Source: Mobula birostris (taxonomy: Eukaryota). Taken from it: 64,000 nt of DNA. The notes beneath the pieces are model-generated. The model was not told the DNA's origin, searched no databases, and saw only the letters and a program-made list of their open reading frames with translations. Below, piece after piece: positions 2,533-62,200 of this stretch. How positions within the stretch are numbered: position 1 is the first letter of the stretch; the number at the start of each line of letters is the position of its first letter. The stretch is from the NCBI RefSeq assembly GCF_030028105.1, contig NW_027278339.1, forward strand, positions 62,001 to 126,000. The letters are read 5' to 3'. Both the position numbers and the translations under genes were made by a program.

Positions 2533-2746
2533 CTGTGGGGGGAAGAGCTTGCCCAGGCTGGGGTCAGTGCCCACACTGGGAGTGAGGGGTTTGTCGGACC
2601 CCTGGCCATCCAGGGGCAGAACTGGGCCAGTGTCCAGGCAGCTGTCGATCTCGTAGTGCACGTACTTGCAGGTGTCCATGTGGAAGCAGGTGTTGAGGAA
2701 GGAGCAGTCACCCAGAGACTCATCCGTGTGCTTGTTGATGATGCGC
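2533..2746 (-). CDS. METTL3: METTL3 (m6A methyltransferase catalytic subunit), internal exon encoding CCCH zinc finger 2 and linker; gene partial in window
   Basis: Translates (R)RIINKHTDESLGDCSFLNTCFHMDTCKYVHYEIDSC...KLFPPQ, matching vertebrate METTL3. Acceptor ttccacag| at 2747, donor CAG|gtgtgc at 2532; starts in phase 2, fitting the upstream ...KLHF-AG exon end. Confidence 0.96.
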
Positions 2747-3799
2747 CTGTGGAAGCAAGAGGTCAGGCCCAGAGGAGCAACAGGTACCCCCTGGAGAGAG
2801 GGATCCCCCACCCTGGAGAGGGATCTCCTGCCTAGAGAGAGAGAGGGAAAGAGGGAGCCTACAGCCAGGAGAGGGATACCCCACCCACAGAGAGAGGGAT
2901 TCTACAGCCAGGGGAGGGATCCCCTGCCTAGCGAGAGAGGGATCTCCCAGCCCAGAGAGAGGGGGATTCTCCTGCCGAGAGAGAAAGATCCTCACCCAGA
3001 GAGAGGGATCCCTTGCCCCGGAGGAAACTGCCAACTGAAGCAAGGAACCCCCCCCCCCACAAAAAACCCATCCAGGGAGGCGGGTTCCCCACCTGGACAG
3101 ACCCCCCCCCCCCAATTGAAGCAAAGGATACCCATTAGAGAGTGCCATCCCCACTGGAGAAAAGGAGCCCCACTAGGGAGACTCCCCCCCATGAGTGAGG
3201 TATCCCGCTGGAATGAGAGAAGGATCCCCACCCAAAGGGCTCCTCTACAGCGGTGAGGGATTGCCAACCCCGAGGGATCACCCATCAGGAAGAGATCCAA
3301 CCATGCTGAGTAAATAATCACCCCCCCCACCTAAAAGAAAGATCATTTACCCTAATCCAAACATGTCGATCGAGGGATCTCCCCCACACCAGTGAGAGGG
3401 ATCCCCAATCCAACTAAGGGAACAAGCCAGAGCGAGGGATCCCAACCAGAGTGCGAAGGATCTCCAAATGGTTGAGACATCCCTCCCCAACAGGGAGCAC
3501 CAGGGGTGAAAGAACCTCCAACACAAAAGATTCTGGACACTTCATCCACCCCCCCCACACCGCTCCACCAGCCCTAATTCCTACCGCCATTTCCTGCCCC
3601 CCCCCCTTACTCCCACCCACCTGAAGTGAAGCTTGTGGGCAGGGCTGCTCCAGGATCTGGGCTCTCATAAACATCGCCTACTTCAGTCACAATCCCGCAG
3701 TCCTCCTGTTCCCTTGTCCTGCCTCTCCCACCCCCGCCCTCTCTTCCTTCAGCCCCTCACTATGTCACCCCCGTCACCACCTGGGCGGCAGGACCCCCC

Positions 3800-4550
3800 T
3801 CCAACAGGCCCTGGGCCCTCGTATACACTTCCCCTCTCTCCCTCACCCCCCCCTCCATCACTCCCCGACCACACTGCCCCCACCTGAAGTGGAGTTTGCG
3901 GCAGGGCCGCTCCAGGTCCTGGGCCCTCGTATACACTTCCCCTCTCTCCCTCACCCCCCCCCCTCCATCACTCCCCGACCACACTGCCCCCACCTGAAGT
4001 GGAGTTTGCGGCAGGGCCGCTCCAGGTCCTGGGCCCTCGTATACACTTCCCCTCTCTCCCTCACCACCCCCCCCTCCATCACTCCCCGACCACACTGCCC
4101 CCACCTGGAGTGGAGTTTGCGGCAGGGCCGCTCCAGGTCCTGGGCCCTCGTATACACTTCCCCTCTCTCCCTCACCCCCCCCCTCCATCACTCCCCGACC
4201 ACACTGCCCCCACCTGGAGTGGAGTTTGCGGCAGGGCCGCTCCAGGTCCTGGGCCCTCGTATACACTTCCCCTCTCTCCCTCACCCCCCCCCCCCATCAC
4301 TCCCCGACCACACTGCCCCCACCTGAAGTGGAGTTTGCGGCAGGGCCGCTCCAGGTCCTGGGCCCTCGTATACACTTCCCCTCTCTCCCTCACCCCCCCC
4401 CCATCACTCCCCGACCACACTGCCCCCACCTGAAGTGGAGTTTGCGGCAGGGCCGCTCCAGGTCTGGGCCCTCGTATACACTTCCCCTCTCTCCCTCACC
4501 CCCCCCCCCCTCCATCACTCCCCCGACCACACTGCCCCCACCTGAAGTGG
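3800..4550 (-). repeat. ~110-bp tandem repeat containing the 3' end of the METTL3 ZnF1 exon (TRAQDLERPCRKLHFR) plus its GT donor
   Basis: Donor-like AG|GTGGGG junctions at 3884, 3994, 4105, 4214, 4323, 4430 and 4542; the array runs into the N gap. Confidence 0.9.
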
Positions 4551-5050
4551 NNNNNNNNNNNNNNNNNNNNNNNNNNNNNNNNNNNNNNNNNNNNNNNNNN
4601 NNNNNNNNNNNNNNNNNNNNNNNNNNNNNNNNNNNNNNNNNNNNNNNNNNNNNNNNNNNNNNNNNNNNNNNNNNNNNNNNNNNNNNNNNNNNNNNNNNNN
4701 NNNNNNNNNNNNNNNNNNNNNNNNNNNNNNNNNNNNNNNNNNNNNNNNNNNNNNNNNNNNNNNNNNNNNNNNNNNNNNNNNNNNNNNNNNNNNNNNNNNN
4801 NNNNNNNNNNNNNNNNNNNNNNNNNNNNNNNNNNNNNNNNNNNNNNNNNNNNNNNNNNNNNNNNNNNNNNNNNNNNNNNNNNNNNNNNNNNNNNNNNNNN
4901 NNNNNNNNNNNNNNNNNNNNNNNNNNNNNNNNNNNNNNNNNNNNNNNNNNNNNNNNNNNNNNNNNNNNNNNNNNNNNNNNNNNNNNNNNNNNNNNNNNNN
5001 NNNNNNNNNNNNNNNNNNNNNNNNNNNNNNNNNNNNNNNNNNNNNNNNNN
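4551..5050. other. Assembly gap (500 N)
   Basis: N run; the round size suggests a scaffolding gap of unknown true length. A second gap lies at 5415-5562. Confidence 0.98.
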
Positions 5051-5599
5051 CTCCCGTCTCCACCCCTCCCTCTCCTCACAACCATCACTCCCTCTCACCC
5101 CCTCACAATTACCCCCCTCTCCCTGTCATAATTACCCCCTCCTCCACCACCTCCCCCTTCCCTAACACCTCCCTCCCTCCACACCCTCCCCCTCTCAAAA
5201 TTACCTGCTTCCTTTTCCACACCCTTTCCCCCTCACGCCACCCCAACCCCTTCCCCTTCACGCCCGCCCCCTTCCCCCTCACACCCACCCGCATTCCCCT
5301 CACACTCGCCCCCTCCCCCTCCCTTTCCTCCTCCCCTCCTCTCTCCCTCCTCCCCTCCTCTCCCCCTCCTCCTCCCCTCCCCCTCCCCCCTCCCCCCCTC
5401 CTCTCTCCCTCCTCNNNNNNNNNNNNNNNNNNNNNNNNNNNNNNNNNNNNNNNNNNNNNNNNNNNNNNNNNNNNNNNNNNNNNNNNNNNNNNNNNNNNNN
5501 NNNNNNNNNNNNNNNNNNNNNNNNNNNNNNNNNNNNNNNNNNNNNNNNNNNNNNNNNNNNNNNCTCCTCTCCTCTCTTCCCCCTCTCCTCTCCCCCCTC

Positions 5600-7010
5600 C
5601 TCCCCCCCCTCACGCCGGTCCCCTTTCCCCTCCCTTCCCCCCTCACACCGGCCCCCTTTCCCCTTCTACGCCGGCCCCCTTGCCCCCCTCATGCCGGCCC
5701 CCTTTCCCCTCTCATGCCGGCCCCCTTGCCCCCCTCACGCCGGCCCCCTTTCCCCTCCCTTCCCCCTCACGCCGGCCCCCTTTCCCCTCCCTTCCCCCCT
5801 CACGCCGCCCCCCTTTCCCCTCCCTTCCCCCCTCACGCCGGCCCCCTTTCCCCTCACTCCCCCCCTCACGCCGCCCCCCTTTCCCCTCCCTCCCCCCTCA
5901 CGCCGGCCCCCTTTCCCCTCCCTCCCCCCCCTTACGCCGGCTACGCCGGCCCCCTTGCCCCCTCACGCCGGCCCCCTTTCCCCTCCCTCCCCCCCTCACG
6001 CCGGCCCCCTTTCCCCTCCCTCCCCCCCTCACGCCGGCCCCCTTTCCCCTCCCTCCCCCCCCTTACGCCGGCTACGCCGGCCCCCTTGCCCCCTCACGCC
6101 GGCCCCCTTTCCCCTCCCTCCCCCCCTCACGCCGGCCCCCTTTCCCCTCCCTCCCCCCCTCACGCCGGCCCCCTTTCCCCTCCCTCCCCCCCTCACGCCG
6201 CCCCCCTTTCCCCTCCCTCCCCCCTCACGCCGGCCCCCTTTCCCCTCTCTCCCCCCCCTCGCGCCGGCCCCCTTGCCCCCTCACGCCGGCCCCCTTTCCC
6301 CTCCCTCCCCCCCTCACGCCGGCCCCCTTTCCCCTCCCTCCCCCCCTCACGCCGGCCCCCTTTCCCCTCCCTCCCCCCCTCACGCCGGCCTCCTTTCCCC
6401 TCACTCCCCCCCTCACGCCGCCCCCCTTTCCCCTCCCTCCCCCCTCACGCCGGCCCCCTTTCCCCTCTCTCCCCCCCCTCGCGCCGGCCCCCTTGCCCCC
6501 CTCACACCAGCCCCCTTTCCCCTTCTTCGCCGGCCCCCTTGCCCCCCTCACGCCGGCCCCCTTTCCCCCCCCTCACGCCGGCCCCCTTTCCCCTCCCTCC
6601 CCCCCTCACGCCGGCCCCCTTTCCCCTCCCTCCCCCCGCTCACGCCGGCCCCTTTTCCTTCCCTCCCCCCCCTCACGCCGGCCCCCTTTCCCCCCCCTCA
6701 CGCCGGCCCCCTTTCCCCCCCCCTCACGCCGGCCCCCTTTCCCCTCCCTCCCCCTGCTCACGCCGGCCCCTTTTCCTTCCCTCCCCCCCCTCACGCCGGC
6801 CCCCTTGCCCCCCCCCTCACGCCGGCCCCCTTTCCCCTCCCTCCCCCCCTCACGCCGGCCCCCTTTCCCCTCCCTCCCCCCCTCACGCCGGCCCCCTTTC
6901 CCCTCCCTCCCCCCCTCACGCCGGCCCCCTTTCCCCTCCCTCCCCCCGCTCACGCCGGCCCCCTTTCCCCTCCCTCCTCCCCCTCACGCCGGCCCCTTTT
7001 CCTTCCCTCT
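5600..7010. repeat. C-rich, CpG-containing ~30-bp minisatellite (CCCTCACGCCGGCCCCCTTTCCCCTCCCT)n
   Basis: Direct tandem iteration; explains the three overlapping Pro-rich ORFs. Confidence 0.95.
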
Positions 7011-7059
7011 TACTCTCTCTACCACCTCACGGCTCCCGTTCCCCTTCCTCTGCCGGTTT

Positions 7060-13100: not shown

Positions 13101-16100
13101 GGTGGGTGGGGCGTCATCGTATGTGGGTGGAGGAGTGGGGGTTGGTAGTTAGTGTGGGTGGGTCCAGCAGGCACTGGGTTAATACTGGGTGGGAGGTGGG
13201 TGCCATGCTTCCCCCTCCCCTCCCCTCCACCCAGCTTCCCTCCCCTCCCCTCTCCAAGAGACCTGGTCGTCACAGGTCAGGGAAGGGTTCATGAACTCCA
13301 GTACTTACTTCCAGACCAGTGGTGGTGAGCTCAGAGAGTCTCTCCCACCATTCCTGGGTCATCGGGAGGCTCCTGACGAGCCCCCCTCCCCTGCCCTGTC
13401 CTTAAATCCCCTTCCACTCTCCTCTGTCTCTGCATTCCCCCCCCCGCAACCCTCTACATTCCCTTCATCCCCTGTCCGCGTTTACATCCCCTTCATCTCT
13501 GTCCCCATCTTCATCCCCTTCATCCCCGTCCCCATCTCCGTCTACAACCACTTCATCCCCCGTCCCACTCCACACCCCCTTCATCACCCGTCCCCGTTCC
13601 CATCTTCATCCCCGTCCCCGTCTACACCCCCTTCATCCCCGTCCCCGTCTACATCCACTTCATCCCCGTCCCCACCCCCTTAATCCCCGTCCCTATCTAC
13701 AGCCCCTTCATCCCCGTCCCCGTCTACACCCCCTTCATCCCCTTCATCCCCTTCCCCATCTCCGTCTACAACCACTTCATCCCCCGTCCCACTCCACACC
13801 CCCTTCATCACCCGTCCCTGTTCCCATCTTCATCCCCGTCCCCGTCTACACCCCCTTCATCCCCGTCCCCGTCTACATCCACTTCATCCCCGTCCCCACC
13901 CCCTTAATCCCCGTCCCTATCTACAGCCCCTTCATCCCTGTCCCCGTCTACACCCCCTTAATCCCCGTACCTATCTACAGCCCCTTCATCCCTGTCCCCG
14001 TCTACACCCCCTTCATCCCCTTCCCCATCTCCGTCTACAACCACTTCATCCCCCGTCCCACTCCACACCCCCTTCATCACCCGTCCCCGTTCCCATCTTT
14101 ATCCCCTTTATGCCCATCTTCATCCTCTTCATCCCCGTCCCTGTCTACACCCCCTTCATCCCCGTCCCCACCCCCTTCATCCCCGTCCCCACCCCCTTCA
14201 TCCCCGTCCCCGTCTACACCCCCTTCATCCCCCGTCTACGCCCCCTGAATCCCCATCCCTGTCTACACCCCCTTCATCCCCTTCTTCATCCCCGTCCCCA
14301 TCACCGTCTACAACCACTTCATCCCCTGACCCCCTCCACACCCCCTTCATCATCCGTCCCCGTTCCCATCTTCATCCCCATCCCCGTCCCCGTCTACACC
14401 CCCTTCATCCCCGTCCCCATCTACAACCCCCTGAATCCCCGTCCCCGTCTACACCGCCTTCATCCCCGTCCCCTTCTACACCCCCTGAATCCCCATCCCC
14501 ATCTTCATCCCCGTCCCCATCTTCATCCCCCCTCGCCATCTTCATCCCCCGTCCCCATCTACACCCCCTTCATCCCCGTCCCCATCTTCATCCCCCCTCG
14601 CCATCTTCATTCCCCGTCCCCGTCGACACCCCCTTCATCCTCTGTCCCCACCCCCTTCATCCCCTGTCCCCGTCTACATCTACGTCCCCGTCTACGCCCC
14701 CGTCCCCGTCTACACCCCCTTCATCCCCGTCCCCGTCTACATCCCCTTCATCCCCGTCCCCACCCCCTTCATCCCCGTCCCCATCTACATCCCCTTCATC
14801 CCCGTTCCCGTCTACACCCCCCTTCATCCCCGTCCCCGTCTACTCCCCCTTCATCCCCGTCCCCGTCTACATCCCCTTCATCCCCCGTCTACACCCTCTT
14901 CATCTCTCCATCTCTCCCCACTCTCCTCGATCATCTCCCCTGTCGTTACCATCTCACTATCAGCTAACTCTTACCTATTCCCGCTCCATCACCTGGGCCT
15001 CTCCCTGCCCTTGTGCTTGCCTCTTCCACACAGTAATTCAACTGCGGGGAGCGGTCATTTCAACCCTCCCCCCCCCCCCCCCCCGACACCCCATCTCCTT
15101 CCTTCCCCTTGTCTCAACCAGGTCCGGGGTGGTGAGGAGGGCTTCTGGGTGCTGGCTGGCTGGTCCATCTCTGGCCTGGGACGGTGGTGGGGTGGGGCCA
15201 GGTGGCGGAGGGGTGGAGGGGGTTTGGGGAAGGATGGGAGGTGCAGGGGAGGGGGAGGAGGTGCTGAGCTGATGTGTTGAGTGGGGCTCCTTCAGCTCCA
15301 GAGTGAACCTGTCAACCATGCTGTGTATGCTGTTACCACAATAGCCCCAGATAAGCCCCATGACTACTCCACTGACCATCCTGTTGGACTTGGGCCTAGT
15401 CAGAGCAAAAAGCCTCCGGCACGTGCACAGCGAGAGAGAGGGAGAGAAAGAAAGATGGTGAGAGAGAGAGAGAGTGAGAGAGAGAAAAGGGGGTGTGCGT
15501 GTGCATTCCCCCTGATTCCACCCACACCCCCTCACCCCTGCCCCCCCAGCCCCGCAATAAGCAACACACTGGCCAAGAAGGCCCTCCCACCAGCACCCAG
15601 GAGGAGGAAGGGGGTCAGTCGACGCATCAGAAGCTGTTCGAGAAACCACTCGCCTTCCAGGGGAGGGAACAGACACTGGCCGATGGTCACACGTTGTGGC
15701 AATCTGCCTCTGTGCCTGCGTCGGAGACAGAAACTTCGCTGCCTTCTCCAGCTCCCGGCATCCCACTGCTCGAAGAAGTAGCCGTCCTCCTAAGGAGGAA
15801 GAAGACACTGGCAGATGGTCACACGTTGTGGTGGTCTGCCTTTGTGAGTGCATCAGAGAGAGAGAGAGAGACAAAGATTCTGCCAACTTCTCCAGCCTCC
15901 CCCTGCAGCCCCTTCACCCGCCAGTCGCCTTCCCGGGGAGGGAGCAGACAGATGGTCACACGTTTTTGCAGATTGTGTTCGTGTGCTGATCAGAGACAGA
16001 CTCCACCATCTTCTCCAGCTCCTTCCACCCCACTGCTCGAAGACCAGCCATTTTCTCAAGGAAGGGAGAAGACACCGGCGGATGGTCACACGTTGTGGCG

Positions 16101-19100
16101 ATCTGCTTTTGTGTGTGCACCAGCGACAGAGACTCCCCACCCTCCCTCCAGCCACTGCTCGAAGACCAGCCACCTTCCTGGGGAGGAGGCGGACGGATAG
16201 ATGCACGTTGTGGTGGTGGTGGTCCATTTGTGTGTACGTCATGAAAAGACAGAGACCCCACCATCTTCTCCAGCCTCCCTCCATCCCATTGCTCGGAGAA
16301 TCAACTGTATCCCCTCAGAGGGAGTGGATGGTCACACACTGTGGCAGTCTGCGTCAGAGAGAGACAAGGCTCCGTCACCATCTCCAGCCTCTCCCTGTAC
16401 TCCCTCCATACACTGCTCAAAGAACAAGCCATCTTCCTGGGAAGGGAACAGACTGGCGGACACACGTTGTGGTGGTCTGCCTTTGTGTGTGCATCATGGA
16501 GAGGCAGAGGCTTCCACCTTCTCCAGCCTCCCGCTGCTCAAGGAACTGGCTGTATTCCCGGGGAGGCAGCGGATGATCACAGGTTGTGGCGATCTCCGTC
16601 ATCAACTTCGGCAGAGCGAACTGGGATGCAGGAGGCGCACAGACTGGCAGCTTTTCGAACTGTCGGCGAGGGGAGATGGCTTCGGTGACCGTCTCCTGGT
16701 CCACGGCCCTGTCTTCCTGCCCCGCTCGCACACTGCAACCGTGCGGTGGGGACAGGAGGAATCCCACCAGCGAGGATTGCTGCCCCTGAGCCACGAGCCG
16801 GCAGGCAAAGAGGAAAGCTGCCACACACAGAGTCGCAAGGACAGAGGCTTCCTCCAGTCGGTGAGAGAGATGGACGCAGAGAGAGCAAGAGGGGTGGGGG
16901 GGGTGCCGCAGTCTACACTGACTAACAGACTGACCACCGACCCCCACCTCCAACCAGGAGCCCCCTCCTTCACATCTCCGTCTTTTCCGAGGGAGGCACT
17001 ACCATGGACTCCATCCTGGCCGTTTCAGCCTTCTCAGCCGAATACAAAATTGTGGGACTTTTCAGCAAAAGAAGCGAAGCATTTGGCTGCTCCACCCTCC
17101 CTTCTCCCCACACAGCCCCGTCTCACCCACCTCCTCCTCCTCCGGCCGGAGACTGGACTGGGCACCGAGACTCTCGCTCACCGGAACTGACTCTTTTTCT
17201 CGAGAATGCGTGTGTCACCCTCCCTCACGGAGCGTTAAAACTCACATCTCACTGCACCACTTATCAGTGGGGGCCCCACTCTGTTTGGACTGTTGCCTAT
17301 ACACAGTACACAGGAGTGCGACTGAGTGCCAGCTCAAGGCATTGCACTGAAGACCAGGTGTGAAAGGGTACCTGGAACATTTGTCATTTCATAAGTTCTT
17401 TCTCTTTGATTTTAATCTGTATTTAAAAGCTTATTTTCCATGTTATATCTTAAAGACAAGTAATTCAGCAAAGATTTTAATTTCTTTATTTTATGCCAGA
17501 GAGGCAAAGAAACACCTTATAGTAATTTTTTTTTGTTAAAACAATGGAACGTTTGTTAGTTTAACAGCTGAATGGGCTGGGGTTTTGATGTAAGGGGTGG
17601 TCATGGATGAGGGATTTGGTGTTAGCAGGATGTGGGGGGGTGGTGGTGTTAGGAACTTGGTTGTGGGGTTGGGGAGGTGGGGTCTTGGGGGAGAGAACGG
17701 CACTGGCCCCCTTGTTCCTGGAGGGAGAAGGGTGGGGGAAAGGGGGAGAGAATCATTATTGAGCAAATTAAAGTACAATTTCATAAATGGTCGGCATTCA
17801 CAGGGGATGGAGTTTGGAGGGAATACGGGGCAGGGAGCTGGGGTGAGGGGCTCCCCAGGCTCCGAGGCTCCTCTCCCCTCCCAGAGGAGTGGGGGGGGGG
17901 GTGGTGATCCCTCGAGGAGGGGTGGGGGAGATTAGCAGAGGCTACACCGGGTGTACAGGGAACCAGTGTCGTTCTCCCCCTGGCCAGGGCATTTGAGGGT
18001 GGGGGGGCTGGAGGGTGGGGGTCCGCGAGAAGGGCAGGGGGAGGATGCTGAGGCTGAGCACTAAGCCAGCCTGCCCCTCCCCATGGCCTCACGCACCGTT
18101 CCCCTCCCCCTCCCCTCGGGGGTCTTCTTTCTGTTGCAGAGCACAGTGCCAAAGGCCTTCAAGAGGAAGATCTCGGTGGTTTGTGAGTACCTCGCGTTGT
18201 CTGCTGTCTGTCCTCAACCTCCACCTCATTGTAGCTGAGGCCTCCCAGTCCCACCCAGAGTCTCATCGAGGGGAGGGAGCCGGTTCAGTCTGGGTCCAAG
18301 AAGTGGCAGGTCAAGTGATACTGGGGAAAGGGTTTCAGTGTGACGGGATGTTTTGGAGAGAACTTTATTCTGTGTCTAACCGCAGGAGTGCATGATGGGA
18401 CGGTGTGAGGGAGCTTCACTCTGTTTCTAACTCTAGGATTGTGTGCTGGGACGATGGGGAGGGAGTTTCACTCTGTGTCTGACCCTGGGAGTGTGTGATG
18501 GGACGGTGTGGAGGGAGCTTCACTCTCTGTCCGACCCCGGGAGTGTGTGATGGGACGGTGTGGAGGGAGCTTCACTCTCTGTCTGACCCCGGGAGTGTGT
18601 GATGGGACGGTGTGGAGGGAGATTCACTGTGTATGTGACCCCGGGATTGTGTGATGGGATGATGTGGAGGGAGTTTCACTCTCTGTCCGACCCCGGGAGT
18701 GTGTGATGGGACGGTGTGGAGGGAGCTTCACTCTCTGTCTGACCCCGGGAGTGTGTGATGGGACGGTGTGGAGGGAGATTCACTGTGTATGTGACCCCGG
18801 GATTGTGTGATGGGATGATGTGGAGGGAGTTTCACTCTGTGTCTGACCCCAGGAGTGTGTGATGGGACGGTGTGGAGGGAGCTTCACTCTGTGTCTGACC
18901 CTGGGAGTGTGTGATGGGACAGTGTGGAGGGAGCTTCACTCTGTGTCTGACCCTGGGAGTGTGTGATGGGACGGTGTGGAGGGAGCTTCACTCTGTGTCT
19001 GACCCCGGGAGTGTGTGATGGGACAGTGTGGAGGGAGTTTCACTCTGTGTCTGACCCTGGGAGTGTGTGATGGGACGGTGTGGAGGGAGCCTCATTAGTG

Positions 19101-28100: not shown

Positions 28101-31100
28101 ATGATTAGGCTGGGATTAAATCAGGGGTTGTCGGGCACTGTGACACGAGGGGTTAGAAGGGCCTTTTCGGCATTGTTTCTCTAAAAACAAAATAAACTTC
28201 AGAAGAATGAGAGAACACCTTATAGAGACAGAGTTGATTCTATTTGTAGGTGAGAATAGAACTAGTGAACATAACGTCAAGATGCAGCGGATTAAATTTA
28301 AGAAGAAGATGAGGAAAAACAGCTTTCACCAGATTATAGTGATTCTGGAACTCTCTGCCCAGAGAAGCTGTAGGAGCTACCTTATTATTTATAGCTAACA
28401 CACAGTTAGGTAGATTTCTACATAGGGGAATTACGGGTTATGGGGAAAAGGCAGGGAGGTGTGACCAAGTCCATGGCCAGATCAGTCATGATCTGATTGG
28501 ATGGCCTAGTAATGCTCATATTTCTTATTGTCTTCTGTGTCTGACCATGGAAGTGTGTGATAGGATGGTGGGGAGTGAGATTCGTTCTGTGTCTGTCTCC
28601 GGGAGTGTGTGATGGGACGGTCTGGAGGGAGTTTCACTCTGTCTGTCCCCGGGAGTGTGTGATGGGACGGTGTGGAGGGAGTTGCACTCTGTGTCTGACC
28701 CCGGGGGTGTGTGATGGGACGGTGTGAGGAAACGTTACCCAGTGTGAGCAGTGATGTGTCCCTGTGCCTGAGTAGATACGTTAGGGGTGGGTAATTAGTT
28801 GTGACTGAACTGACTGTGCCTCTATCCCCAGCCGCCAGTAAGGTTGGGCCAGTGAGCAGTGGGGACTCGGATAGCAGCCAGCCCGCCCGCAAACGGCGGT
28901 GGGGATCCAGTACCGTGGCCACACAGAAGAAACCCTCCATCAGCATCACCACAGAGTCCCTGAAGGTGAGGGCTGAATGCTACTGCTGACCTGGTGTCTA
29001 ATGTATGCAAACCCCTCATCTCCCCATTGCCAGTGTCACCATTCGCCCTCACCTCCTCCCTAACCCCTCCCCGCCCAACCCCTCACCTTCATTCACCCCC
29101 AGTCCTCGCGCCTTCCTCTCCCCTCACAAACACTCGCTCGCCCCCCCCCCCCCCCATTACCTTCCTCTCCCACGATGCACCCCAGTCTGTGTGCTGTGCG
29201 TCCGGGCTGGACGGGCATCTCTGACTGTGGGCTCTCTCCAGAACCTGATGCCGGAGATGAAACCGGCGCTGGGGGCCGTGCCCAGCCCGGGCCAGGAAGT
29301 GGTGGTGGAGCTGCACCCAGACGATGCCCGCATCTCCGAGGAAGAGGGCGAGAGGGCCGAGGAAAAGGGCAGCCAGGACCGGGGACTGAAGATACGGCGC
29401 ACTGTTACGCAGGTATCCATGGCCCATCTCCCCTCCCTTCTGCTGATCTTTTCCTCTCCCTCTCCCCATCTCCACTCCTTCTCATCTCCCTCACCAATGT
29501 CCACCTCCCCAAATCACCCTCATCTCCCCTTCCTTCCCCAATCTCCCCCCCTTCCCTTCTCGCCTATCCCTCAATCCCCTCCCTCATTTTCCTGCTTCCC
29601 TACTCCCTACCTCCTCCCCTGCTCTGCTGTTGACTTCTATCACCCCCCCGCCCTACCCGCCGTCTCTCTCACCTCTATCCCTAGCCCTTCCCTCTCCCCG
29701 CCTCCTTCATGGACCTTCCTCTCCCCAGGTGGTGACCGCGGAGGGTCCAGAGAACGGAAAGGATGATGATCGGGATGAGGAGGAGGAAGAGGAAGAGGAG
29801 GAGGAGGAGACACAGGCGAAGGAGCCTGAGGTGCTTCCCCCGGTGGAACCCGAGGTTCCTCCTGCCGTGGAGGTTGAGCTCAAGAAGGGTGAGTGAGCTA
29901 GGTTGGGATGTCCTGGAAATTGGGAACCTGCGGTAACACTTTGTCCTCTCTATGTCCGTGTTGTGACATGCGATCCGTCTGTGACCGCTCCATGTCCCTG
30001 TCAGGACTGTGGTCTATTAGAAAACCGATCTTCGTCCCTGCCTTGCAGTCAGACCTGTTTCTCTACCCTCAGTAACTCCGAGTGAAACAGTCGTGCGGCG
30101 TTCGATAAGCCAACAGAAGACGGGGATGTCGGTGACAATCGATGATCCAGTGCGGCCGGCGCAGAACCCCTCCCCACCCCGAGGGAAGACCAGTCTCATC
30201 GTACACATCTGTAACCTGGTGAGTTCCTGCACAAGTTCCGGTGCCATATCCGTGGGTCGGATCCACACCGGGAGCACCATGCAGTTCCCGTTTCAGTATC
30301 CGTGGGTCAGACCCACACTGCGAACGCCGTGCAGTTCTTTTTTCAGTGTGGGTCAGACTCACACCAGGAACACTGTGCTGTTCCTATTTCAGTATCCATG
30401 GGTCAGACTCACACCAGGAACACCGTGCTGTTCCTATTTCAGTATCCGTGGGTCAGACTCACACCAGGAACACCGTGCTGTTCCTATTTCAGTATCTGTG
30501 GGTCAGACCCACACTGGGAACACCGTGCTGTTCCTATTTCAGTATCTGTGGGTCAGACCCACACTGGGAACACTGTGCTGTTCCTATTTCAGTATCTGTG
30601 GGTCAGACTCACACCAGGAACACCGTGCTGTTCCTATTTCAGTATCCGTGGGTCAGACTCACACCAGGAACACCGTGCTGTTCCTATTTCAGTATCCGTG
30701 GGTCAGACTCACACCAGGAACACCGTGCTGTTCCTATTTCAGTATCTGTGGGTCAGACTCACACCAGGAACACCGTGCTGTTCCTATTTCAGTATCCGTG
30801 GGTCAGACTCACACCAGGAACACCGTGCTGTTCCTATTTCAGTATCCGTGGGTCAGACTCACACCAGGAACACCGTGCTGTTCCTATTTCAGTATCCGTG
30901 GGTCAGACTCACACCAGGAACACCGTGCTGTTCCTATTTCAGTATCCGTGGGTCAGACTCACACCAGGAACACCGTGCTGTTCCTATTTCAGTATCCGTG
31001 GGTCAGACTCACACCAGGAACACCGTGCTGTTCCTATTTCAGTATCCGTGGGTCAGACTCACACCAGGAACACCGTGCTGTTCCTATTTCAGTATCCGTG

Positions 31101-34100
31101 GGTCAGACTCACACCAGGAACACCGTGCTGTTCCTATTTCAGTATCCGTGGGTCAGACCCACACTAGGAACACTGCGCAGTTCCCGTTTCAGTATCCGTG
31201 GGTCGGACCCACACTGGGAACACCGTGCAGTTCCCGTTTCAGTATCCGTGGGTCGGACCCACACTGGGAACACCGTGCAGTTCCCGTTTCAGTTCCTGTT
31301 TCAGTATCCGTGGGTCAGACCCACACCAGGAACACCGTGCAGTTCCCGTTTCAGTATCTGTGGGTCGGACCCACACTGGGAACATCGTGCTGTTCCCGTT
31401 TCAGTATCCGTGGGTCGGACCCACACTGGGAACACCGTGCTGTTCCCGTTTCAGTATCCGTGGGTCAGACCCACACTGGGAACACCGTGCACTTCCCGTT
31501 TCAGTACCTGTGGGTCAGACCCACACTGTCAGTTCCTGTTTCAGTACCTGTGGGTCAGACCCACATTGGGAGCATTGTGCACAGTTCCCATCTCCTTATC
31601 CCTCGTTCCATATGTCAATCCCACTCTGGGTGAAAAAGCTGCTCCTCTGGCCCCCTTTAAATCTCTCCCCTCTCACCTTAAACCTGAACCCCCTGGTTCT
31701 GGACTAACCTACCCTGGGAAAAAGACTTATCTTCCATCTTAATTATACCCCACTATCAGGTCACCACTCAGCCTCCTCGGCGCCAGGGAAAACGATCCCA
31801 GCCTGTTCGATCTCTCCTTATACTTCAAGCGCTCCAGTTCCAGTAACATGCTCATGAATTTTCCCTACATCCTCTCAATTATAATGGCGGCCAGAACTGC
31901 ACACGGTGATCACAGTAGCCTGGCCAACAGCCATTGTGCTAGCTGCAGGGTGGCTGTGACGAGTCAGTCTCCTGTGTGGCAGAGATCTTCCCCTTCAGTA
32001 GCTGGTCCCTGGGGAGGGAGGGATCAGTCATTGCGCCTCACATGCACCACACACAACATTGTCGCCAGGACTCGGACACACCAGGCTGGACCCTCTTCCC
32101 CACAGGTGCGGCCGTTCACCCTGGGGCAGCTCAAGGAGCTGCTGAACCGGACTGGGACCCTGGTGGAAGAAGGATTCTGGATTGACAAGATCAAGTCACA
32201 CTGCTATGCAACGGTAAGTGGACAGAGCAGCAGCAATAATGGAACGTACAGGTAGGTGGGACGTGTGAGAGGGCAAGGCGGAAGGGTGGGGCGAAGGGAA
32301 GAGACGGAATGTGGGGGATGTGGGTGAGAGGGCAAGGTGTGAGGTGAAATGGAAAATGGAGAGTGACGGGGAGAGGGGTAGGAGGGGAGAGGCAGGGGAT
32401 TAGAGAGTGGGTAGAGGTGGGTTAGGAGGAAGAGACAGGAGTGAGAGAGAGGATATGGGGTGAAAGGGGAAACGGGAGATGGTTGAGTAAGGGGGAGAGC
32501 TGAGACAGAGAGTGAGAGGAGATATGAGAAGTGAAACAGAATGAAGGGGGTGTTGAGAGAGGCTTACAGAGAGGGAGAGAGACAGCAGGTTAGGGGGGTT
32601 TGAGATTGGATGTTGGGGAGAGACAGATGGGATTGGAGAGGAGAAGCAGAGTCAGGAGGTTTGCTGGGGGGGGTTAAAGAGAGGACAGATGTGGGGAAAG
32701 AAAGGTTGGGAGGGAGAAGGGTGGTAAGAGAGGAAGATACAGGAAGGAGAGAAGGAGACTGGGGAGGTAGGATAGTCGGTGGGGGAAGGACATGCTTGAG
32801 GGTAGGTGGCGCAGTCGGTGTGAGACACGATGGGTGGGGGAGAAAGGAACTGTGAGACAGAGATGATGCTGAGATACTGCTGCTGGTATGAGTGTGTGCA
32901 ACGATGAGACTTTGGCTTTACCTGTTTCCTTCCCTCCTCCACAGTACTCCTGCATCGAAGAGGCAATTGCCACTAGGAATTCTCTGCACGGAGTGAAGTG
33001 GCCAGCGTCAAATCCCAAATTCCTGGCGGTGGATTATGCAGAGCAGGATGAGGTGTGTATGCTTATCCGATCCTGAGCTGTCTGGTTCTGTGTCTCACCC
33101 CAGGAATGTGATGGGATGGGGTGGAGGTGGCCAGGTTGATTGTGCAGGAAGGCGAGCAGGGAGCAGGTGGGGGTGTTTGGTGGAGGAAGAAGAGGGGGTT
33201 TCATTCCATGGACGGGGACAAGCAGGACAGATGTGGAAAGGGTGAATGGGGGCCCTTGTCTCAGAACAAATGCTGGGTTGGGATCTCTTGACCCAGAATG
33301 GTGAATATCCCTGAAGCTTTGCATTAAACATAGAGCACACGGCAGCACACAACGGACCCTTCAACCCACAGTGTTGTGCACAACTCCCTACACAATGCTC
33401 ATATCCCTCCATTGCTTTCACATTCAGAATCAGAGTCAGGATTACTGTCACAGACGTATCATGAAATTTGTTATAATTTGAAGTAGCGAGTGAGGGACAG
33501 ACATTGTTGCTAGGAGTTTAAAAAGAACAGTAACAAGAATGGGGAGCACAAGTGGAGCAGGCATTGTTGGAGTGGGTCAGAGTTAAGAGTGGCAGGCTTG
33601 GGCAAGCACATGTGAAGGTTCTAAGTACCTATCCAGTGAGCTTTGTTTTTCGCTTCCTTTGTCAACTAGTCGCGTGCTGAGAACAGGTCCAGAGTATATT
33701 CTTTGTGTAAGATGTGGGAACTCTGGGAGACCTCCAGTTTCTGAGCTGCAGCTTCTTAGAGACTGTGTTAAAGTGCTGGAGCTGCAGCTCGATGACCTTC
33801 GACTTACACTGGAGAATGATGAGGTGATAGAGGGGAGCTGCAGGGAGGTAGTCACTCCCAGGGTGACTCAGGAGAGGGAAAGAGCCAGTGCAGAGCACCC
33901 CTTTGGTCATCCTGTCAATAACAAGCACACTGCTTTGTATCGCAAATACCGGTGATTGACCTACTAGGGGGAAGGCTCAGCAGTCAGGTCCCTAGTACTG
34001 AGTCAGACTCAGTGGCTCTTTAGGGAAGGAGGGAATAGGAGTAGGAGGGAGGGAAGAAGTGCAGTGTTGATAGGGGATTTCATAGTTCGAGAAGCAGCCA

Positions 34101-47845: not shown

Positions 47846-50800
47846 TCAGGCACTCTCCTCAGCAGGTTCTGCGGAGAAAGGAAGGGAGATAATTAATCCA
47901 ACACAGACTACATCTGAGAGCACACAATCAGAGTGTGCTGGGGGTGAGGGGCAGTGTGAGGGAGCTGGATTAACGTCAGTGACATGGCACTGGGGGAGAG
48001 CAGTTACTGTCCTGTGTGAATAATTACTCACTGTGAGAGTCTCCCTTACCCTGGCTAGTGGTCTGTTCAGCGAGCACTGTCCTGTACAGATCGTAGGCAT
48101 CATACATCAATACACCCGTCAGAAAGAATCCGAAAACCTGTAATCAAAAATAAATGCTTTTGTCCAACCCTGGGAGTGTGTGATGGACAGTGCAGTGGCA
48201 GATTCACTCTGTGTCCGACCTCGGGAGCATGTGATGGGACGGTGTGGAGGGAGTTTCACTCTGTGTCTGACCCCAGGAGTGTGTGATGGGACGGTGTGGA
48301 GGGAGCCTCACGCTGTGTCTGACCCTGGAAGTGTGTGATGGGAAAGTGTGGAGGGAGCTTCACTGTGTGTCTGACCCCGGGAGTGTGTGATGGGACGGTG
48401 TGGAGGGAGTTTCACTCTGTCTGACCCCGGGAGTGTGTGGTGGGATGGTGTGGAGGGAGTTTCACTCTGTCTGACCCCGGGAGTGTGTGATGGGATGGTG
48501 TGGAGGGAGTTTCACTCTGTGTCTGACCCCGGGAGTGTGTGGAGGGAGCCTCACTGTGTGTTTGACCCCATGAGTGTGCTTTGGGACTGTGACGGAAGCC
48601 TCACTCTGTGTCTGTGGGATGAGACGATGCAGAGGGAGGTTCACTATGTGTCAACCTCAGGAGTGTGTGATTGGGTGGTGGGATGAGCTGGTGTTTTGGG
48701 ACAGTGATGGGAGCCTCACTCTTCCCACTTACTGCAGCCGCTGCCATTCCTGACCCTCCACTCCGAACAGACGAGATGATGGAGAGAATGAGGAAAATGA
48801 GGGCTGAGATGACAGCTCGCACGAAGTCCTGAGGGAGGACAAGAAATTAATGTTAGTTCTGGATCCCGTGTAATCTAACCTTCTAAATCAGCCTGCTGCG
48901 AGGAACCTTGTCGAGTCCATATGGATAATATCAACCACCCTACCCTCCTGGTTCCTTCCTCAAGGAACTCCAAGAGATTTGGTCGGACGCAACTTCCCAC
49001 ACACACAGTTGTGTTGGCTGTCCCAAACCAGGCCCTGTCCATCAGAATCCCCTCTCTCAACTTACCCACCACCAACGTCAGACTCATTGGCCTTCTGTTT
49101 CCTGGCTTGTTTTTGCGACCCTCTTTAAGCAATGGTACCACATTAGCCACTCTCCACTCACCCAGAACCTCACCTGTGGCCAGAGGTGAAGCAAAAATCT
49201 CCACAAGGGTCTCCACGATTTCTTCAGCTTCCCACAAGCCTCGAGAATGCACCAGGTCAGGGCCTGAGGATTTACCCACCTAATAGACTTTAAGGTCTCC
49301 AGTACTTCCTCCCTCCTAATCTGTGTGTACCCAAGATGCCACCCATTCACTCCCTGAGCTTCCATTGTTCTCTCCACAGTAAAAACTGAAGAGAAATGCT
49401 CATTAGAAAATCTCTGCCATGTCCTTCAGTTCCACATGCAGACAGCCATGCTGATCTCTTGAATTTTGCCTCACCTATGCCTGACAGATAAGACCACAAG
49501 ATATAGGATCAGAATTCAGCCATTTAGCCCATCGAGTCTGCTCTGCCATTTTATCATGGTTGATCCAATTCTCCTCTCAGCCCCAATCTCCTGCCTTCTC
49601 CCCATATTCCTTCGTGCCCTGACCAAATGAGAGCCTATCAACCTCTGCCTTAAATATATCCAATGACTTGGCCTCCACAGCTGTCTGTGGCAACGAATTC
49701 CACAGATTCACCAACCTCTGGCTAAAGAAATTCCTCCTCATCTGCATTCTAAATGGACGCCCCTCTACTCTGAGGCTGTGTCCTCTGGTCTTGGAGTCTC
49801 CCACAAAAGGAAACATCCTCTCCACATCTACTATCAAGGCCTTTCACCTTTTGAGAGATTTTAATGAGGTCACCCCTCATTTTTCTGAATTACAGTGAAT
49901 ACAGGCCCAGAGCCATCAAACACTCCTCATAAAGACAAGCCTTTCAATCCTGGAATCATTTTTGTGAAACTCCTTTGAACCTTCTCCAATGTCAGCACAT
50001 CCTTTCTTAGATAAGGGGCCTAAAACTGCTCACCGTACTCCAAGTGAGGCCTCACTAGTGCCTTATAAATCCTCAAAATTACATCCTTGCTTTTATATTC
50101 TAGCCTGGAAACGAATGCTAACATCGCATTATCTTCCTGACCACAGGCTCAACCTGCAAATTAACCTCCAGGGAATCCTGCACAAGGATTCCCAAATCCC
50201 TTTGTACCTCAGATCTTTGTATTTCCTCACCATTTAGAAAATAGTCAACCCTTTCTACCCAGATCCATACCATAGCCTTGTTCTCTCCTAACTTCTCTCC
50301 TCAGTGCACTCCTCCACTTCCTGCAACCATTGAGAGATTCTCTTGACCCAACTACCTCCACCCAACATATGCCTCCTTTTTCCCAACCGGAGCCTCAGTA
50401 TCTCCTGTCAGCTTGGGTTCCCTAAACCTGCCACCCTTGGCCTTCATCCCGCTGGAATACTGTATTCCAGGATTTCAAAAACGCATCTTTAAAAGCCTCC
50501 CACTTTCCAGTCGTACCTTGACCCATAAAGAGTTTAACCCAATTGACCCTGGCAAGATCCTATCCAGTGCTTCTAAAATTGGTCTCAAGTTTAGCGGCTT
50601 AACCTGTGACATTTTAAAATTAATAGAATTGTCATTGGACTCAAAGTAGTTCCTGACTTGCACAACAGATATAGAACATAGAACAGTACAGGCCCTTTGG
50701 CCCACAACGTTGTGCTGACCTTTTAACCCACTCTAAGATCAATTTAACTCTTCCCTGTCACATCATCCTCCGTTTTCCTTTCATCTATGGGCCCATCTAA

Positions 50801-53065
50801 GAGTCCCTTAAATGCCCCTAATTTATCTGCCTCTACCCCCAGCCCTGGCACCGTTCCCACCCACCCATCACTCTCTGGGTACCTACCTGACATTCCTCCC
50901 CCTATACTTTCTTCAATCACATTAAAATTACGTCCTCTCATATTAGGAATTCCCACCCCTGGGAAAGGGCACTGGTTGTCCACTCTATCAATTCCTCTTT
51001 ATCTTGTACTCCTGTACCTTGTCCTCCTCCGCTCTAAAGAGAAAAGCCCTAGCTCGCTCAAACTTAAAACTTGCTCGTTAATCCAGGCAGCGTTCTGGTG
51101 AATCTCCTCTGCACCCTCTCAAAAGCTTCCACGTCCTTCCTATAATGAGGTGGCCAGTCTGAACACAAGTGTGGTCTAACTAGTTTCATAGAGCTGCAAC
51201 ATTAGCTGGTGTCTCTTGAACTCAGTCCCCTGATTACTGAAGGCCAACACACCATATACTTTCTTAACCATCCTGTTAACTTGTGCAGCAACCTTGAGGG
51301 ATCTGTGGACATGGACCCCAAGATCTCTCTGTAGCCTCAGACTAAGAATCCTACTTTTAACCGTAATTTTCTTTCAATTTGAGCTTCCAAAGTGGTTTCA
51401 CTTCACACTTCTCCAGATGGAGTCCAGAACCATATCCAGAGACACTAATAATGCTTTTCTCAGATTCAATCCCTCTCCTTCTGACAGTAACCTCACTCTC
51501 CCTGCGTGGTATCACTGACTGTATTCAGCCCCAGCTCCCTCACACCATCCCTCAGTGACCCCTCTCCCCCAGGGCCCTGTGTCACTGACTGTATCCCCAC
51601 TGTTGTTAATCCAGCTCCCTCACACCATCCCTCAGTGACCCCTCTCCCCCAGTGCCCTGTATCACTGACTGTATCCCCACTGACATTAATCCAGCCCCCT
51701 CACACCATCCCTCAGTGACCCCTCTCCCCCAGTGCCCTGTATCACTGACTGTATCCCCACTGACATTAATCCAGCTCCCTCACACCATCCCTCAGTGACC
51801 CTCTCCCTCAGCACCCTGTGTCACTGACTGTATCCCCACTGACATTAATCCAGCTCCCTCACACCATCCCTCAGTGACCCTCTCCCTCAGCACCCTGTGT
51901 CACTGACTGTATCCCCACTGACATTAATCCAGCTCCCTCAGACCGTCCCTCAGTGACCCCTGTCCCCATGTGCCTTGTCACTGACTGTATCCCCACTGTT
52001 GTTAATCCAGCTCCCTCACACTCTCTGTGACCCCTCTCCCCCAGCGCCGTGTCACTGACTGTATCCCCATTGACATTAATCCAGCTCCCTCCCACTATCC
52101 CTCACTGACCCCTCTCCCCAACGCCGTGTCACTGACTGTATCCCCACTGACATTAATCCAGCTCCCTCAGACAGTCCCTCAGTGACCCCTCTCCGCCAGC
52201 GCCGTGTCACTGACTGTATCCCCACTGATGTTAATCCAGTCCCCTCACACTGTCCCTCAGTGACCCCTCACCCCATGTGCCTTGTCACTGACTGTATCCC
52301 CACTGACATTAATCCAGCTCCCCCACGCCATTCCTCAATGGCTGAGCTCCCCCCTCACTCCCACCCCTCCCCACCAGCTCTCACCGTGGTGGGCCAGCTG
52401 AGGCCAGCGAGTTTTTGGTGGTAGCGGGTGAGATAGACGCAGAGGAAGCAGATGTTGAGGATGAGGAAGAGGAGGGGGGCGGTGAGGAATGCCGTGTCTG
52501 ACGCCGCGTAGCAGACGAACAGCAGAAACAGGAGGATCTGCCGGAGGGAGAGAGGGAGAGAGGTTAGACTTGTCTCTGCGTGCGCAGTCCGATCCCACAG
52601 TACACAGTCTGATCCCAGAGTGCACAGTCTGATCCCACAATGCACAGACTGATCCCAGAGTGCACAGTACAATCCCACAGTGCAGACTGGTGCCAGAGTG
52701 CACAGTCCGATCCCACAGTACACAGACTGGTCCCAGCGTGCACAGTCCGATCCCAGAGTGCGCAGTCCGATCCCACAGTACACAGTCCGATTCCAGGGTC
52801 TCACTGGTAAACAGTTCAATCCCAAGTCCTGCCCCAGGGTAGTCGGATGCGAAACCACCCACCGTAAAAGTCAATCTCAGGGTTAGATGCCCCACCTCCC
52901 TGCACAATCCGATCTCACAGCCACCCACACTCCCCGCACAGACCGATCCTACGCGTTTACCATCTCGACAGCCAGGATGATCCCGCGCCGGGACTTGAGG
53001 AAAACCCCGTGTCGGCGGAGCGTGGAGAGCGGAGAATCCGCCGGCTCCGCCTGAGATCCCGGCAT
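47846..53065 (-). CDS. CMTM5: CMTM5-like CKLF/MARVEL four-transmembrane protein, 5 exons, 154 aa
   Basis: complement(join 52961-53065, 52385-52537, 48733-48828, 48050-48137, 47846-47868): MPGSQ...FLKSRRGIILAVEM/ILLFLLFVCYAAS...LSWPTT/DFVRAVIS...AAAA/VFGFFLTGVLMYDAYDLYRT...SQ/EPAEESA*. Exon structure and motifs are CMTM-type; paralogue assigned from the YDA...YRT tail and proximity to NGDN. Confidence 0.8.
48875..51400 (-). mobile_element. CR1 LINE fragments in CMTM5-like intron 2
   Basis: WRVANVVPLLK; VERMFPFVGDSKTRGHSLRVEGRPF...LWNSLPQ. Confidence 0.85.
51510..52330. repeat. ~80-bp minisatellite; a separate ~19-bp array lies at 52580-52800
   Basis: ATCACTGACTGTATCCCCACTGACATTAATCCAGCTCCCTCACACC... 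recurs with an 80-bp period (51661, 51741). Confidence 0.92.
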
Positions 53066-59200: not shown

Positions 59201-62200
59201 GGAATATTGTGTTCCGTTCCGGTCGCCTCACTGAAGGAAGGACCTGGAAGATCCAGATTCGGGGCTCCCAACCTTTTTGTTTTAAACGCCGTGAACCAAT
59301 CGCATTAAGCAAGGAGACTGTGGATCCGGGGTTGGGAACCCCTGCTTGAGAAGGTGCAGAAGAGATCCACCAGGATGCTGCCTGGATTAGAGAGTGAGGA
59401 GAGGCTGAGTGAGCTCTTCGTAGCGAAGGAGGATGAGACACTCGGCAGAGGTAGAGAAGATGATAGAAGGCATCGGTGGGAGTGAATCACCAGCAGCTTT
59501 TCTCAGGGACAGCACTGGCTGAGACGAGGGCCCAGAATTTCAGAGTGATTGGAGGGACGGGGGTGGGGGGAAAATGTCAGAGGCAAGTTTTTTCCCCCTC
59601 TCCTCACAGAAAGTGATGGGTGTGTGGACACTCTACCCTGCTGGTAGAGGCAGATACATTAGGGGCATTAAAGAAAACTCTTAGATAGGCACACGGATGA
59701 TAGAAAAGTGGAGAGTTACGTAGGATGAAAGGGTTCATCCCAACTTCCTTATGCCATGAACCCCCGTCGTTAACTGAGTGATCCGCAGACCGCAGGTTGG
59801 GAAACCCTGGGTGAGACTGATCGAACAGCAAGTTAAATGGTCACAGTGGGCGGAACGGGCTGGACTGCGTTCTACTGTTCCGTCTGGGGCTCGAACCCAG
59901 ACCACGCTACCCTCTTCTCCCCAGCTGTGGCCTGAATGCCACCCCCCCAGCCCTGTCCCCAGTTACCTGTGGGCCTGCTCGCGGTGCTGGCGCATGGCGT
60001 GGTAGTCGTGCCCCTCCCGCAGCTCCTCGGGGGCCTGGCTGTACTGTTCCCGCAGCTCGTGGATCAGAGAGCTGCTGAGAGCCCGGCGCCTGGCCCGCTC
60101 CTGCTGACGGCGTTCGCGCTCTGCCGCCGTCTCATCCCCGTCTGGAGGGAGCACAAGAGTCAGACTGTGTGTCGGCGGGGAGGAGGGGATAGAGAGAGTA
60201 TGAGGGGATGAGGGGATGGGGGGGCAGGGGGGAGGCAGACAGAAATGGGTGGGAGGGGGGCCGTACACTAACCATAGACCATCGGAACCAGGCGAGGCGG
60301 CACGTAGACCTTCTTAGACGATCGGATACTTTCCTTCTTCTGGGGCGTCTCCACCTCTTCCTCCTCCTCCTCCTCGTCCTCCACCTCCCTCTCCTCCTCA
60401 TCGAGCTAAAATCCCAACACAGGCCTGTCAGCAGGGGTCTGCACGGGGAGGGAGGGGAAGAGTGAGGGACAGCGAGGACGGTCAGCGGGGAGGGAGGGAG
60501 GGGAAGAGGGAGGAACAGTGAGGACGGTCAGCGGGGAGGGAGGGAGGGGAAGAGTGAGGGACAGTGAGGACGGTCAGCGGGGAGGGAGGGAGGGGAAGAG
60601 TGAGGGACAGCGAGGACGGTCAGCTGGGAGGGAGGGAGGGGAAGAGTGAGGGACAGTGAGGACAGTCAGCGGGGAGGGAGGGAGGGAGGGGAAGAGTGAG
60701 GGACAGTGAGGACGGTCAGCGGGGAGGGAGGGAGGGAGGGGAAGAGTGAGGGACAGTGAGGACGGTCAGCGGGGAGGGAGGGAGGGAGGGGAAGAGTGAG
60801 GGACAGCGAGGACGGTCAGCGGGGAGGGAGGGAGGGGAAGAGTGAGGGACAGCGAGGATGGTCAGCGGGGAGGGAGGGAGGGAGGGGAAGAGTGAGGGAC
60901 AGTGAGGACGGTCAGCGGGGAGGGAGGGAAAGAGTGAGGGACAGCGAGGACGGTCAGCAGGGAGGGAGGGAGGGGAAGAGTGAGGGACAGTGAGGACGGT
61001 CAGCGGGGAGGGAGGGAGGGAGGGGAAGAGTGAGGGACAGCGAGGACGGTCAGCGGGTAGGGAGGGAGGGGAAGAGTGAGGGACAGTGAGGACGGTCAGC
61101 AGGGAGGGAGGGGAAGGGTGAGGGACAGTGAGGACGGTCAGCGGGGAGGGAGGGAGGGGAAGAGTGAGGGACAGTGAGGACGGTCAGTGGGGAGGGAGGG
61201 AGGGGAAGAGTAAGGGACAGTGAGGACGGTCAGCGGGGAGGGAGGGAGGGAGGGGAAGAGTGGGGAAGAGTGAGGGACAGTGAGGATGGTCAGCGGGGAG
61301 GGAGGGAGGGAGGGGAAGAGTGAGGGACAGCGAGGACGGTCAGCGGGGAGGGAGGGGAAGAGTGAGGGACAGTGAGGACGGTCAGCGGGGAGGGAGGGAG
61401 GGAGGGGAAGAGTGAGGGACAGCGAGGACGGTCAGCGGGGAGGGAGGGAGGGGAAGAGTGAGGGACAGCGAGGACGGTCAGCGGGGAGGGAGGGATGGGA
61501 AGAGTGAGGGACAGCAAGGACGGTCAGCGGGGAGGGAAGGAGGGAGGGGAAGAGTGAGGGACAGCGAGGATGGTCAGCAGGGAGGGAGGGAGGGAGGGGA
61601 AGAGTGAGGGACAGCGAGGATGGTCAGCAGGGAGGGAGGGAGGGGAAGAGTGAGGGACAGTGAGGATGCTCAGCGGGGAGGGAGGGAGGGAGGGGAAGAG
61701 TGAGGGACAGTGAGGACGGTCAGCGGGGAGGGAAGGAGGGAGGGAGGGAGGGGAAGAGTGAGGGACAGCGAGGACGGTCAGCGGGGAGGGAGGGAGGGAG
61801 GGGAAGAGTGAGGGACAGTGAGGACGGTCAGCGGGGAGGGAGGGAGGGAGGGGAAGAGTGAGGGACAGTGAGGACGGTCAGCGGGGAGGGAGGGAGGGGA
61901 AGAGTGAGGGACAGTGAGGACGGTCAGCGGGGAGGGAGGGAAAGAGTGAGGGACAGCGAGGACGGTCAGCGGGGAGGGAGGGAGGGAGGGGAAGAGTGAG
62001 GGACAGCGAGGACGGTCAGCGGGGAGGGAGGGAGGGAGGGGAAGAGTGAGGGACAGTGAGGACGGTCAGCAGGGAGGGAGGGGAAGGGTGAGGGACAGTG
62101 AGGACGGTCAGCGGGGAGGGAGGGGAAGAGTGAGGGACAGTGAGGACGGTCAGCGGGGAGGGAGGGAGGGGAAGAGTGAGGGACAGTGAGGACGGTCAGT

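Follow-up and report, generated by a model that had tools for sequence, protein, structure and literature searches.

Minisatellites whose first monomer lies across an exon-intron boundary reiterate the splice donor of that boundary, and PMC1557585 gives F7, LMNB2, PDGF, CBS, and 6-16 as genes that carry one. In intron 7 of F7, where a 37-bp unit is present in 5-9 copies, that account describes use of the most upstream donor alone, and the identical pseudo-sites behind it do not compete even if they are strengthened. As summarised in the same source, the authentic donor alone is also used in LMNB2 (100-bp unit, 10-15 copies) and in intron 4 of PDGF (81-bp unit, 16-18 copies), while in intron 13 of CBS (15-20 copies) and intron 2 of the interferon-inducible gene 6-16 (25 pseudo-sites) the nearest two pseudo-donors are used as well. 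The title of a reference within PMC1557585 links the CBS repeat to reduced activity. Splicing-associated tandem repeats in general are described as widespread in humans, in the thousands (PMC10078293), and a route of intron gain by tandem genomic duplication is described that needs an AGGT motif (PMC3443670).

Here we analyze an array of this kind in the myliobatiform ray Mobula birostris, within a 64,000-nt window (contig NW_027278339.1 of assembly GCF_030028105.1, positions 62,001 to 126,000; all coordinates below are window positions). Judged by its sequence, this array in METTL3 is a member of the published junction-spanning minisatellite class. As in F7, the unit holds the exon end and the donor, the intronic pseudo-donors are identical and share one acceptor, and the donor is G-rich with a modest match to the consensus. 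It differs from F7 in having a longer unit, about 110 bp, to which the exon contributes about 53 nt (4 nt in F7), and in being a non-mammalian array known from the sequence of one assembly. LMNB2 and PDGF are nearest in size and likewise reiterate the junction in a long unit, but the METTL3 array has decayed flanking copies, and it is for these two genes that authentic-only donor use is reported. CBS and 6-16 have the same architecture, and their leak into the nearest pseudo-donors is a precedent for an effect on dose, although nearly all distal METTL3 donors would lead to a stop and not to an in-frame product. The AGGT duplication route is related yet a weaker match than the junction-spanning minisatellites: it shares tandem copies of a segment containing AG/GT (PMC3443670; the slash marks the exon-intron junction here and below), but in METTL3 the copied segment is exon plus intron at a pre-existing junction, and the repeated AG appears to be a poor acceptor. 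Among the papers listed by our literature searches, which did not extend to subscription journals and supplements, none dealt with METTL3 together with a ray and nothing specific on autoregulatory splicing of METTL3 came up.

Architecture of the array and identity of the gene

The tandem array and the seven junctions proposed in the first-pass annotation of this DNA are confirmed (Table 1). The array has a period of 109, 6.8 copies, and 97% matches, and consists of head-to-tail, near-identical units, each made of about 57 nt of G-rich intron start and about 53 nt of exon-end-like sequence that codes for RAQDLERPCRKLHFR of ray METTL3. On the minus strand, seven identical donors reading CAG/GTGGGG follow one another about 110 bp apart, 5' of the METTL3 exon at 2746-2533; their last exonic bases are 4542, 4430, 4323, 4214, 4105, 3994, and 3884, giving spacings, in order, of 112, 107, 109, 109, 111, and 110 nt. 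The copies lie within the intron that follows the exon of the first zinc finger (ZnF1), and the acceptor at 2746 is the common target of all the donors. The proposal that the spacings differ only by poly-G length holds for the range of 107-112 nt and fails in detail, as one base is missing from the exon-like part of the unit that ends at 4430, and a second G run in the first unit is longer by one G. A Phe-to-Ser codon change had been noted in two units and is indeed present in those ending at 4214 and 4105. The similarity of the array copies to the exon is not chance: elsewhere in the window the exon-like part scores 30 at best, and a decayed copy at 3621 scores 63.

Table 1. Coordinates of the features around the METTL3 junction
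Feature	Position	Strand	Remark
METTL3 exon, second zinc finger and linker (human 301-372)	2533..2746	minus	acceptor at 2746
Unrelated degenerate repeat, 20-53 bp, same intron	2793..3012	minus	ends 47 nt from acceptor
Decayed copy B	3597..3673	minus	junction 3621
Decayed copy A	3709..3828	minus	continues last partial unit; junction 3781
Junction-bearing tandem array	3805..4550	minus	unit ~110 bp; runs into gap
Assembly gap, 500 N	4551..5050		
Assembly gap, 149 N	5415..5563		

That the gene is METTL3 is borne out by the downstream exon, which aligns with human METTL3 in the PDB over residues 301-372 (E 1.9e-26) and is 100% identical to METTL3 of Hypanus sabinus, a protein that carries the Pfam domain MT-A70. 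Three ray proteins agree with this intact exon at every residue, two of them, from Mobula, over the residues shared, and the acceptor of the exon stands where it had been placed, at 2746. The array region had also been credited with supplying the last two ligands of ZnF1, and this agrees with the ligand set C276, C284, C294, and H298 given in PMC6418081, in which C294 and H298 are those two. According to the same source, the exon junction splits the beta-strand 300-302 that joins ZnF1 and ZnF2, and substitution R300D or R301D brings METTL3 activity down to about 10%. An insertion at this junction would thus be more likely to damage the domain than to retune it.

The authentic ZnF1 exon end is itself unassembled, with perhaps 9 bases before 4542 visible ahead of the 500-N gap. 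Since the array runs into this gap, seven is a number of visible units and not a copy number. When the Hypanus METTL3 protein was compared with the window by tblastn, the only matches were the exon at 2746-2533 and the array copies, and no exon for residues 1-265 or 353-560 was found in the window. The authentic exon end and all METTL3 coding exons upstream of it would be expected where the two gaps stand, but these hold 649 N in total and 842 nt are needed, so the stated gap size is nominal or else the sequences were joined wrongly. In both Mobula birostris and Rhincodon the METTL3 model is incomplete and has no ZnF1 exon, so assembly of this region is apparently difficult in other cartilaginous fishes as well.

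Decayed copies and the loss of reading frame

Two further copies, which the first-pass annotation did not describe, lie at the 3' edge of the array. Copy A matches the exon-like part in 37 of 42 aligned bases, with an insertion of 5 nt and a deletion of 10 nt, and its donor at 3781 is weaker (6 of 9 consensus positions). Copy B is identical to the array unit in 43 of 52 bases, plus an insertion of 1 nt; its score of 63 against the exon-like part compares with a maximum of 33 among shuffles (0 of 1000 shuffles as high), and its donor at 3621 matches the consensus in 8 of 9 positions, one above the array donors. CAG/GT is present at all nine junctions, the seven of the array and those of copies A and B. 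The decayed copies, together with a substitution common to two adjacent units, point to a real duplication history, and the copies themselves argue for an old duplication and against an assembly artefact.

The ray METTL3 proteins read ECMRAQDLERPCRKLHFR at the end of the finger. VYTRAQ is translated in 5 of the 6 fully visible units, and one more base is lost in the sixth; in the array as in copy B, the Cys codon can still be seen but stands off frame by two bases, and an ATG Met codon retained in copy B is ACG in the array. All 6 fully visible units have Thr at the position after the second Cys, a residue found there in none of the 98 named METTL3 proteins whose finger is intact (Met 50, Val 44, Ile 3, Gly 1, Thr 0). 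An intact finger was defined as C-x7-C-x9-C-x3-H, and of 126 records the 107 named ones were used, 19 unnamed ones were excluded, and 9 of those named were unmatched. TRAQ, which had been taken for the reading of the exon, is therefore that of a mutated copy, as the ray proteins read ECMRAQ.

The reading frame fares no better. Only 1 of 6 array unit lengths is divisible by three, and reading on from junction 4542 meets a TGA at codon 17 ahead of each of the 7 distal donors tested. With each of the nine junctions in turn allowed as authentic, 36 donor pairs can be formed, of which 2 (4214 to 3884 and 4105 to 3994) stay open through the next exon and 34 lead to a stop, so that the frameshift or premature stop proposed for distal donor use is what the sequence predicts. 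The donors had also been called phase-compatible with the exon at 2746; this is right inside each copy and breaks down across copies, at the same TGA. Unit length determines the outcome, as 109 nt frameshifts into the next exon, 110 nt stops within the unit, and 111 nt is open, so miscalled G runs could alter individual frame results. Across the six unit lengths and the 36 donor pairs there is no sign of selection for a reading frame. What has been copied amounts to about 17 codons of the exon end, with 2 of the 4 zinc ligands in frame. The array does not fit a coding duplication of a tandem domain or exon, since the frame is not kept and the exon-like part has frameshifts and replacement changes, nor does it fit an exon duplication with its own acceptor, since only the exon end has been copied and no complete domain or exon. 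The visible copies evolve without coding constraint.

Splice site properties of the repeated junction

PMC1557585 gives the donor consensus as MAG/GURAGU. Of its 9 positions, 7 are matched by the array donors and 6-9 by 16 further donors that we called by eye elsewhere in the window. The strength of the array donors is thus ordinary and the pseudo-donors are usable in principle. Considered as acceptors, the junctions have a branch-like motif (yTnAy) within 50 nt in 0 of 8 cases, compared with 14 of 17 called acceptors. Their upstream tract contains 14 pyrimidines in 20 positions, equal to the median of the 17 called acceptors, with a T count of 3-5 versus 4-9 and a longest pyrimidine run of 4 versus a median of 8. 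On these features the repeated AG looks poor as an acceptor.

The intronic half of the unit contains five runs of at least 3 G and has a G4Hunter-type score of 2.0. Predicted RNA folding was no stronger than that of shuffles for two units and copy B (z 0.07, -0.63, and -0.36). Structural masking of the donor was not adopted as an explanation: a predicted stem does hold the donor, but the folding is no better than in shuffles.

Tandem repeats elsewhere in the window

Tandem repeats occupy 11,714 of the 63,351 non-N bases of the window (18.5%), in 12 arrays of at least 200 bp, and of the 11 arrays other than that in METTL3, 7 are found no more than 160 nt from the edge of a called exon. For none of 17 called exons was the end or start found copied in the adjacent 3 kb, in a search whose control recovered 5 copies, so the METTL3 array is the sole exon-containing array in the window. 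A preprint on shark and ray genomes describes the red stingray as having many regions dominated by simple tandem repeats, and repetitive regions as higher in GC (10.1101/2025.06.08.657570), and the instability of GC-rich minisatellites has been linked to G-quadruplex in yeast models (PMC3486850, PMC5491262).

Several of the other arrays stand close to exons. At 60446-63038, a 46-bp minisatellite of about 55 copies fills nearly the entire intron that separates the minus-strand exon 63122-63070 from another at about 60405-60273; its unit resembles a branch-point motif plus pyrimidine tract, reiterated. The host gene is putatively NGDN. A 50-bp array at 30247-31528 starts 29 nt past a donor of a plus-strand gene with an ACIN1-type RSB motif, the only named match when 7 window segments were compared with Pfam, and each of its units ends in a pyrimidine-rich stretch plus CAG, forming a ladder of acceptor-like sites. 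A hydrophobic exon on the minus strand (52537-52385) has a different array on each side, that at 51531-52337 (80-bp unit) 48 nt away and that at 52580-52795 (20/40-bp unit) 43 nt away. One 52-bp unit is common to the arrays at 18338-19094, 28531-28726, and 48167-48578, which indicates a dispersed minisatellite family. A degenerate repeat of about 120-130 bp at 15480-16600, not reported by TRF, lies in long plus-strand open frames in the upstream part of the plus-strand gene and is possibly a repetitive coding or UTR exon.

Nearer to METTL3, a G-rich 33-bp minisatellite of about 40 copies (5632-7009) begins just past a possible minus-strand donor near 7024. Upstream of the minisatellite lies a CpG-rich stretch that has a CCAAT box near 7105, and near 7150 a plus-strand first exon begins, with a short ATG-to-stop frame. 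This arrangement could represent a bidirectional promoter together with a METTL3 first exon that is non-coding, but no coding link was found.

Probable origin and behavior of the array

The best reading, on our analysis, is that the METTL3 array is a G-rich junction-spanning minisatellite whose pseudo-donors would be largely silent and whose leak, where it occurs, would run into premature stops. The founding step would have been one old duplication of the last ~53 nt of the ZnF1 exon and the first ~57 nt of the intron; that a single event was involved is suggested by the 5' edge and the two-base offset, which the array units and copy B have in common. The G-run-rich unit would later have expanded and become homogenised, leaving decayed copies at the 3' edge, and G-quadruplex-linked instability may have driven this expansion. 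By analogy with F7, LMNB2, and PDGF, the spliceosome would then use the most upstream, authentic donor, and rare use of a distal donor would give an in silico predicted premature stop upstream of further introns and so probably nonsense-mediated decay (NMD). We put the probability of this whole account, from founding duplication through G-rich expansion and first-donor selection to NMD of rare errors, at roughly 0.7. The net effect on METTL3 would be little or none and, since this is a known kind of repeat in which the first donor is usually kept, the array is probably harmless and not a regulatory device. Three observations run against such a reading: two of the five human examples, CBS and 6-16, do use their nearest pseudo-donors (as summarised in PMC1557585), array donors of ordinary strength are usable, and an array that alone in its window contains an exon end is less than ordinary.

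Alternatively, the pseudo-donors could take a measurable share of splicing, with the products degraded and array alleles altering the dose of METTL3. The donors are after all identical, with that of copy B slightly better, the predicted products nearly all contain a stop, the CBS repeat is linked to reduced activity in the source cited above, and splicing-associated tandem repeats are widespread in humans (PMC10078293). We nevertheless consider it rather unlikely, since the F7 pseudo-sites stay silent even when strengthened and the LMNB2 and PDGF arrays, similar in size, keep to the authentic donor (PMC1557585), and since reported leaks go to the nearest copies and would not scale with copy number. 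The ladder of competing donors tuned by repeat number that had been proposed for this locus is unlike the best-studied arrays of the kind, as F7 uses its most upstream donor alone (PMC1557585). A stronger version, in which an array that is length-polymorphic in rays diverts a copy-number-dependent share of METTL3 pre-mRNA to NMD and so acts as a heritable dial for the dose of the m6A writer, possibly controlled by G-run-binding proteins or G-quadruplexes, we hold to be distinctly improbable.

An altogether different outcome was also proposed, in which distal donors would add modules of about 37 residues repeating the C-x3-H half-finger and alter target specificity. The 111-nt unit (4105 to 3994) is open, as is 4214 to 3884, and a one-base change in a G run, whose length may be miscalled, would open any unit. 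With one unit in six in frame, the stop past junction 4542, the second Cys lost in frame, and a Phe-to-Ser change in two units, this is nonetheless barely credible, and the protein record agrees. Among the 107 named METTL3 proteins the finger end occurs once in 99 and twice in none, with the same spacing to ZnF2 in all 99 and thus no insertion; the 8 shark and ray proteins that span the junction all lack an insertion (another two, both partial, do not reach across it), and where isoforms are listed for Hypanus, Hemitrygon, and Narcine, they differ at places other than the junction. The sequences are annotated proteins of species that may or may not have the array, a set from which isoforms subject to NMD would be missing. 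A query with the in-frame module (3954-4160) found none in 17 longer-protein candidates at E up to 10, a weak result in that METTL3 itself was unrecovered, and one with Hypanus residues 130-355 gave no extra ray cluster in the best 120 of 1173 matches. The position of the junction in the finger-joining strand, where single substitutions leave about 10% activity (PMC6418081), weighs against added modules as well.

The repeated units might instead be removed as mini-introns or recursive steps, leaving a normal mRNA. The junctions do have the AGGT form that this model requires (PMC3443670) and a pyrimidine content typical of acceptors in the window, but the lack of branch-like motifs, the low T count, and the short pyrimidine runs, along with a duplicated segment that is half intronic, unlike that of the model, make this highly improbable. 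Finally, the array might be wholly or mostly an assembly product of the contig end, or the stretch a misjoined or duplicate fragment and not a working METTL3. The array does adjoin the 500-N gap, its units differ mostly in G-run lengths, and the window contains one complete METTL3 exon, with upstream coding exons that are absent and cannot fit into 649 N. Duplicated reads of the true exon would not, however, yield copies A and B, the substitution in two adjacent units, or changes common to all units yet absent from the proteins, and the exon at 2746-2533 shows no damage and matches three ray proteins without a difference, so we regard an artefact as very unlikely.

Significance

Read as a minisatellite with largely silent pseudo-donors, the most likely case, the array has a modest significance: it would be a further junction-spanning minisatellite, outside mammals, in an essential RNA-modifying gene. 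It accounts for the assembly break in METTL3 and alerts annotators to false exon ends, and with its 110-bp unit it offers a natural test of first-donor selection in a cartilaginous fish. Repeat-dependent splicing itself has precedent. If a copy-number-dependent leak into NMD were true, a cis-acting repeat would set the dose of the m6A writer, which would interest both the m6A and the splicing fields, and the decayed copies would then be traces of repeated re-amplification of this junction during batoid evolution.
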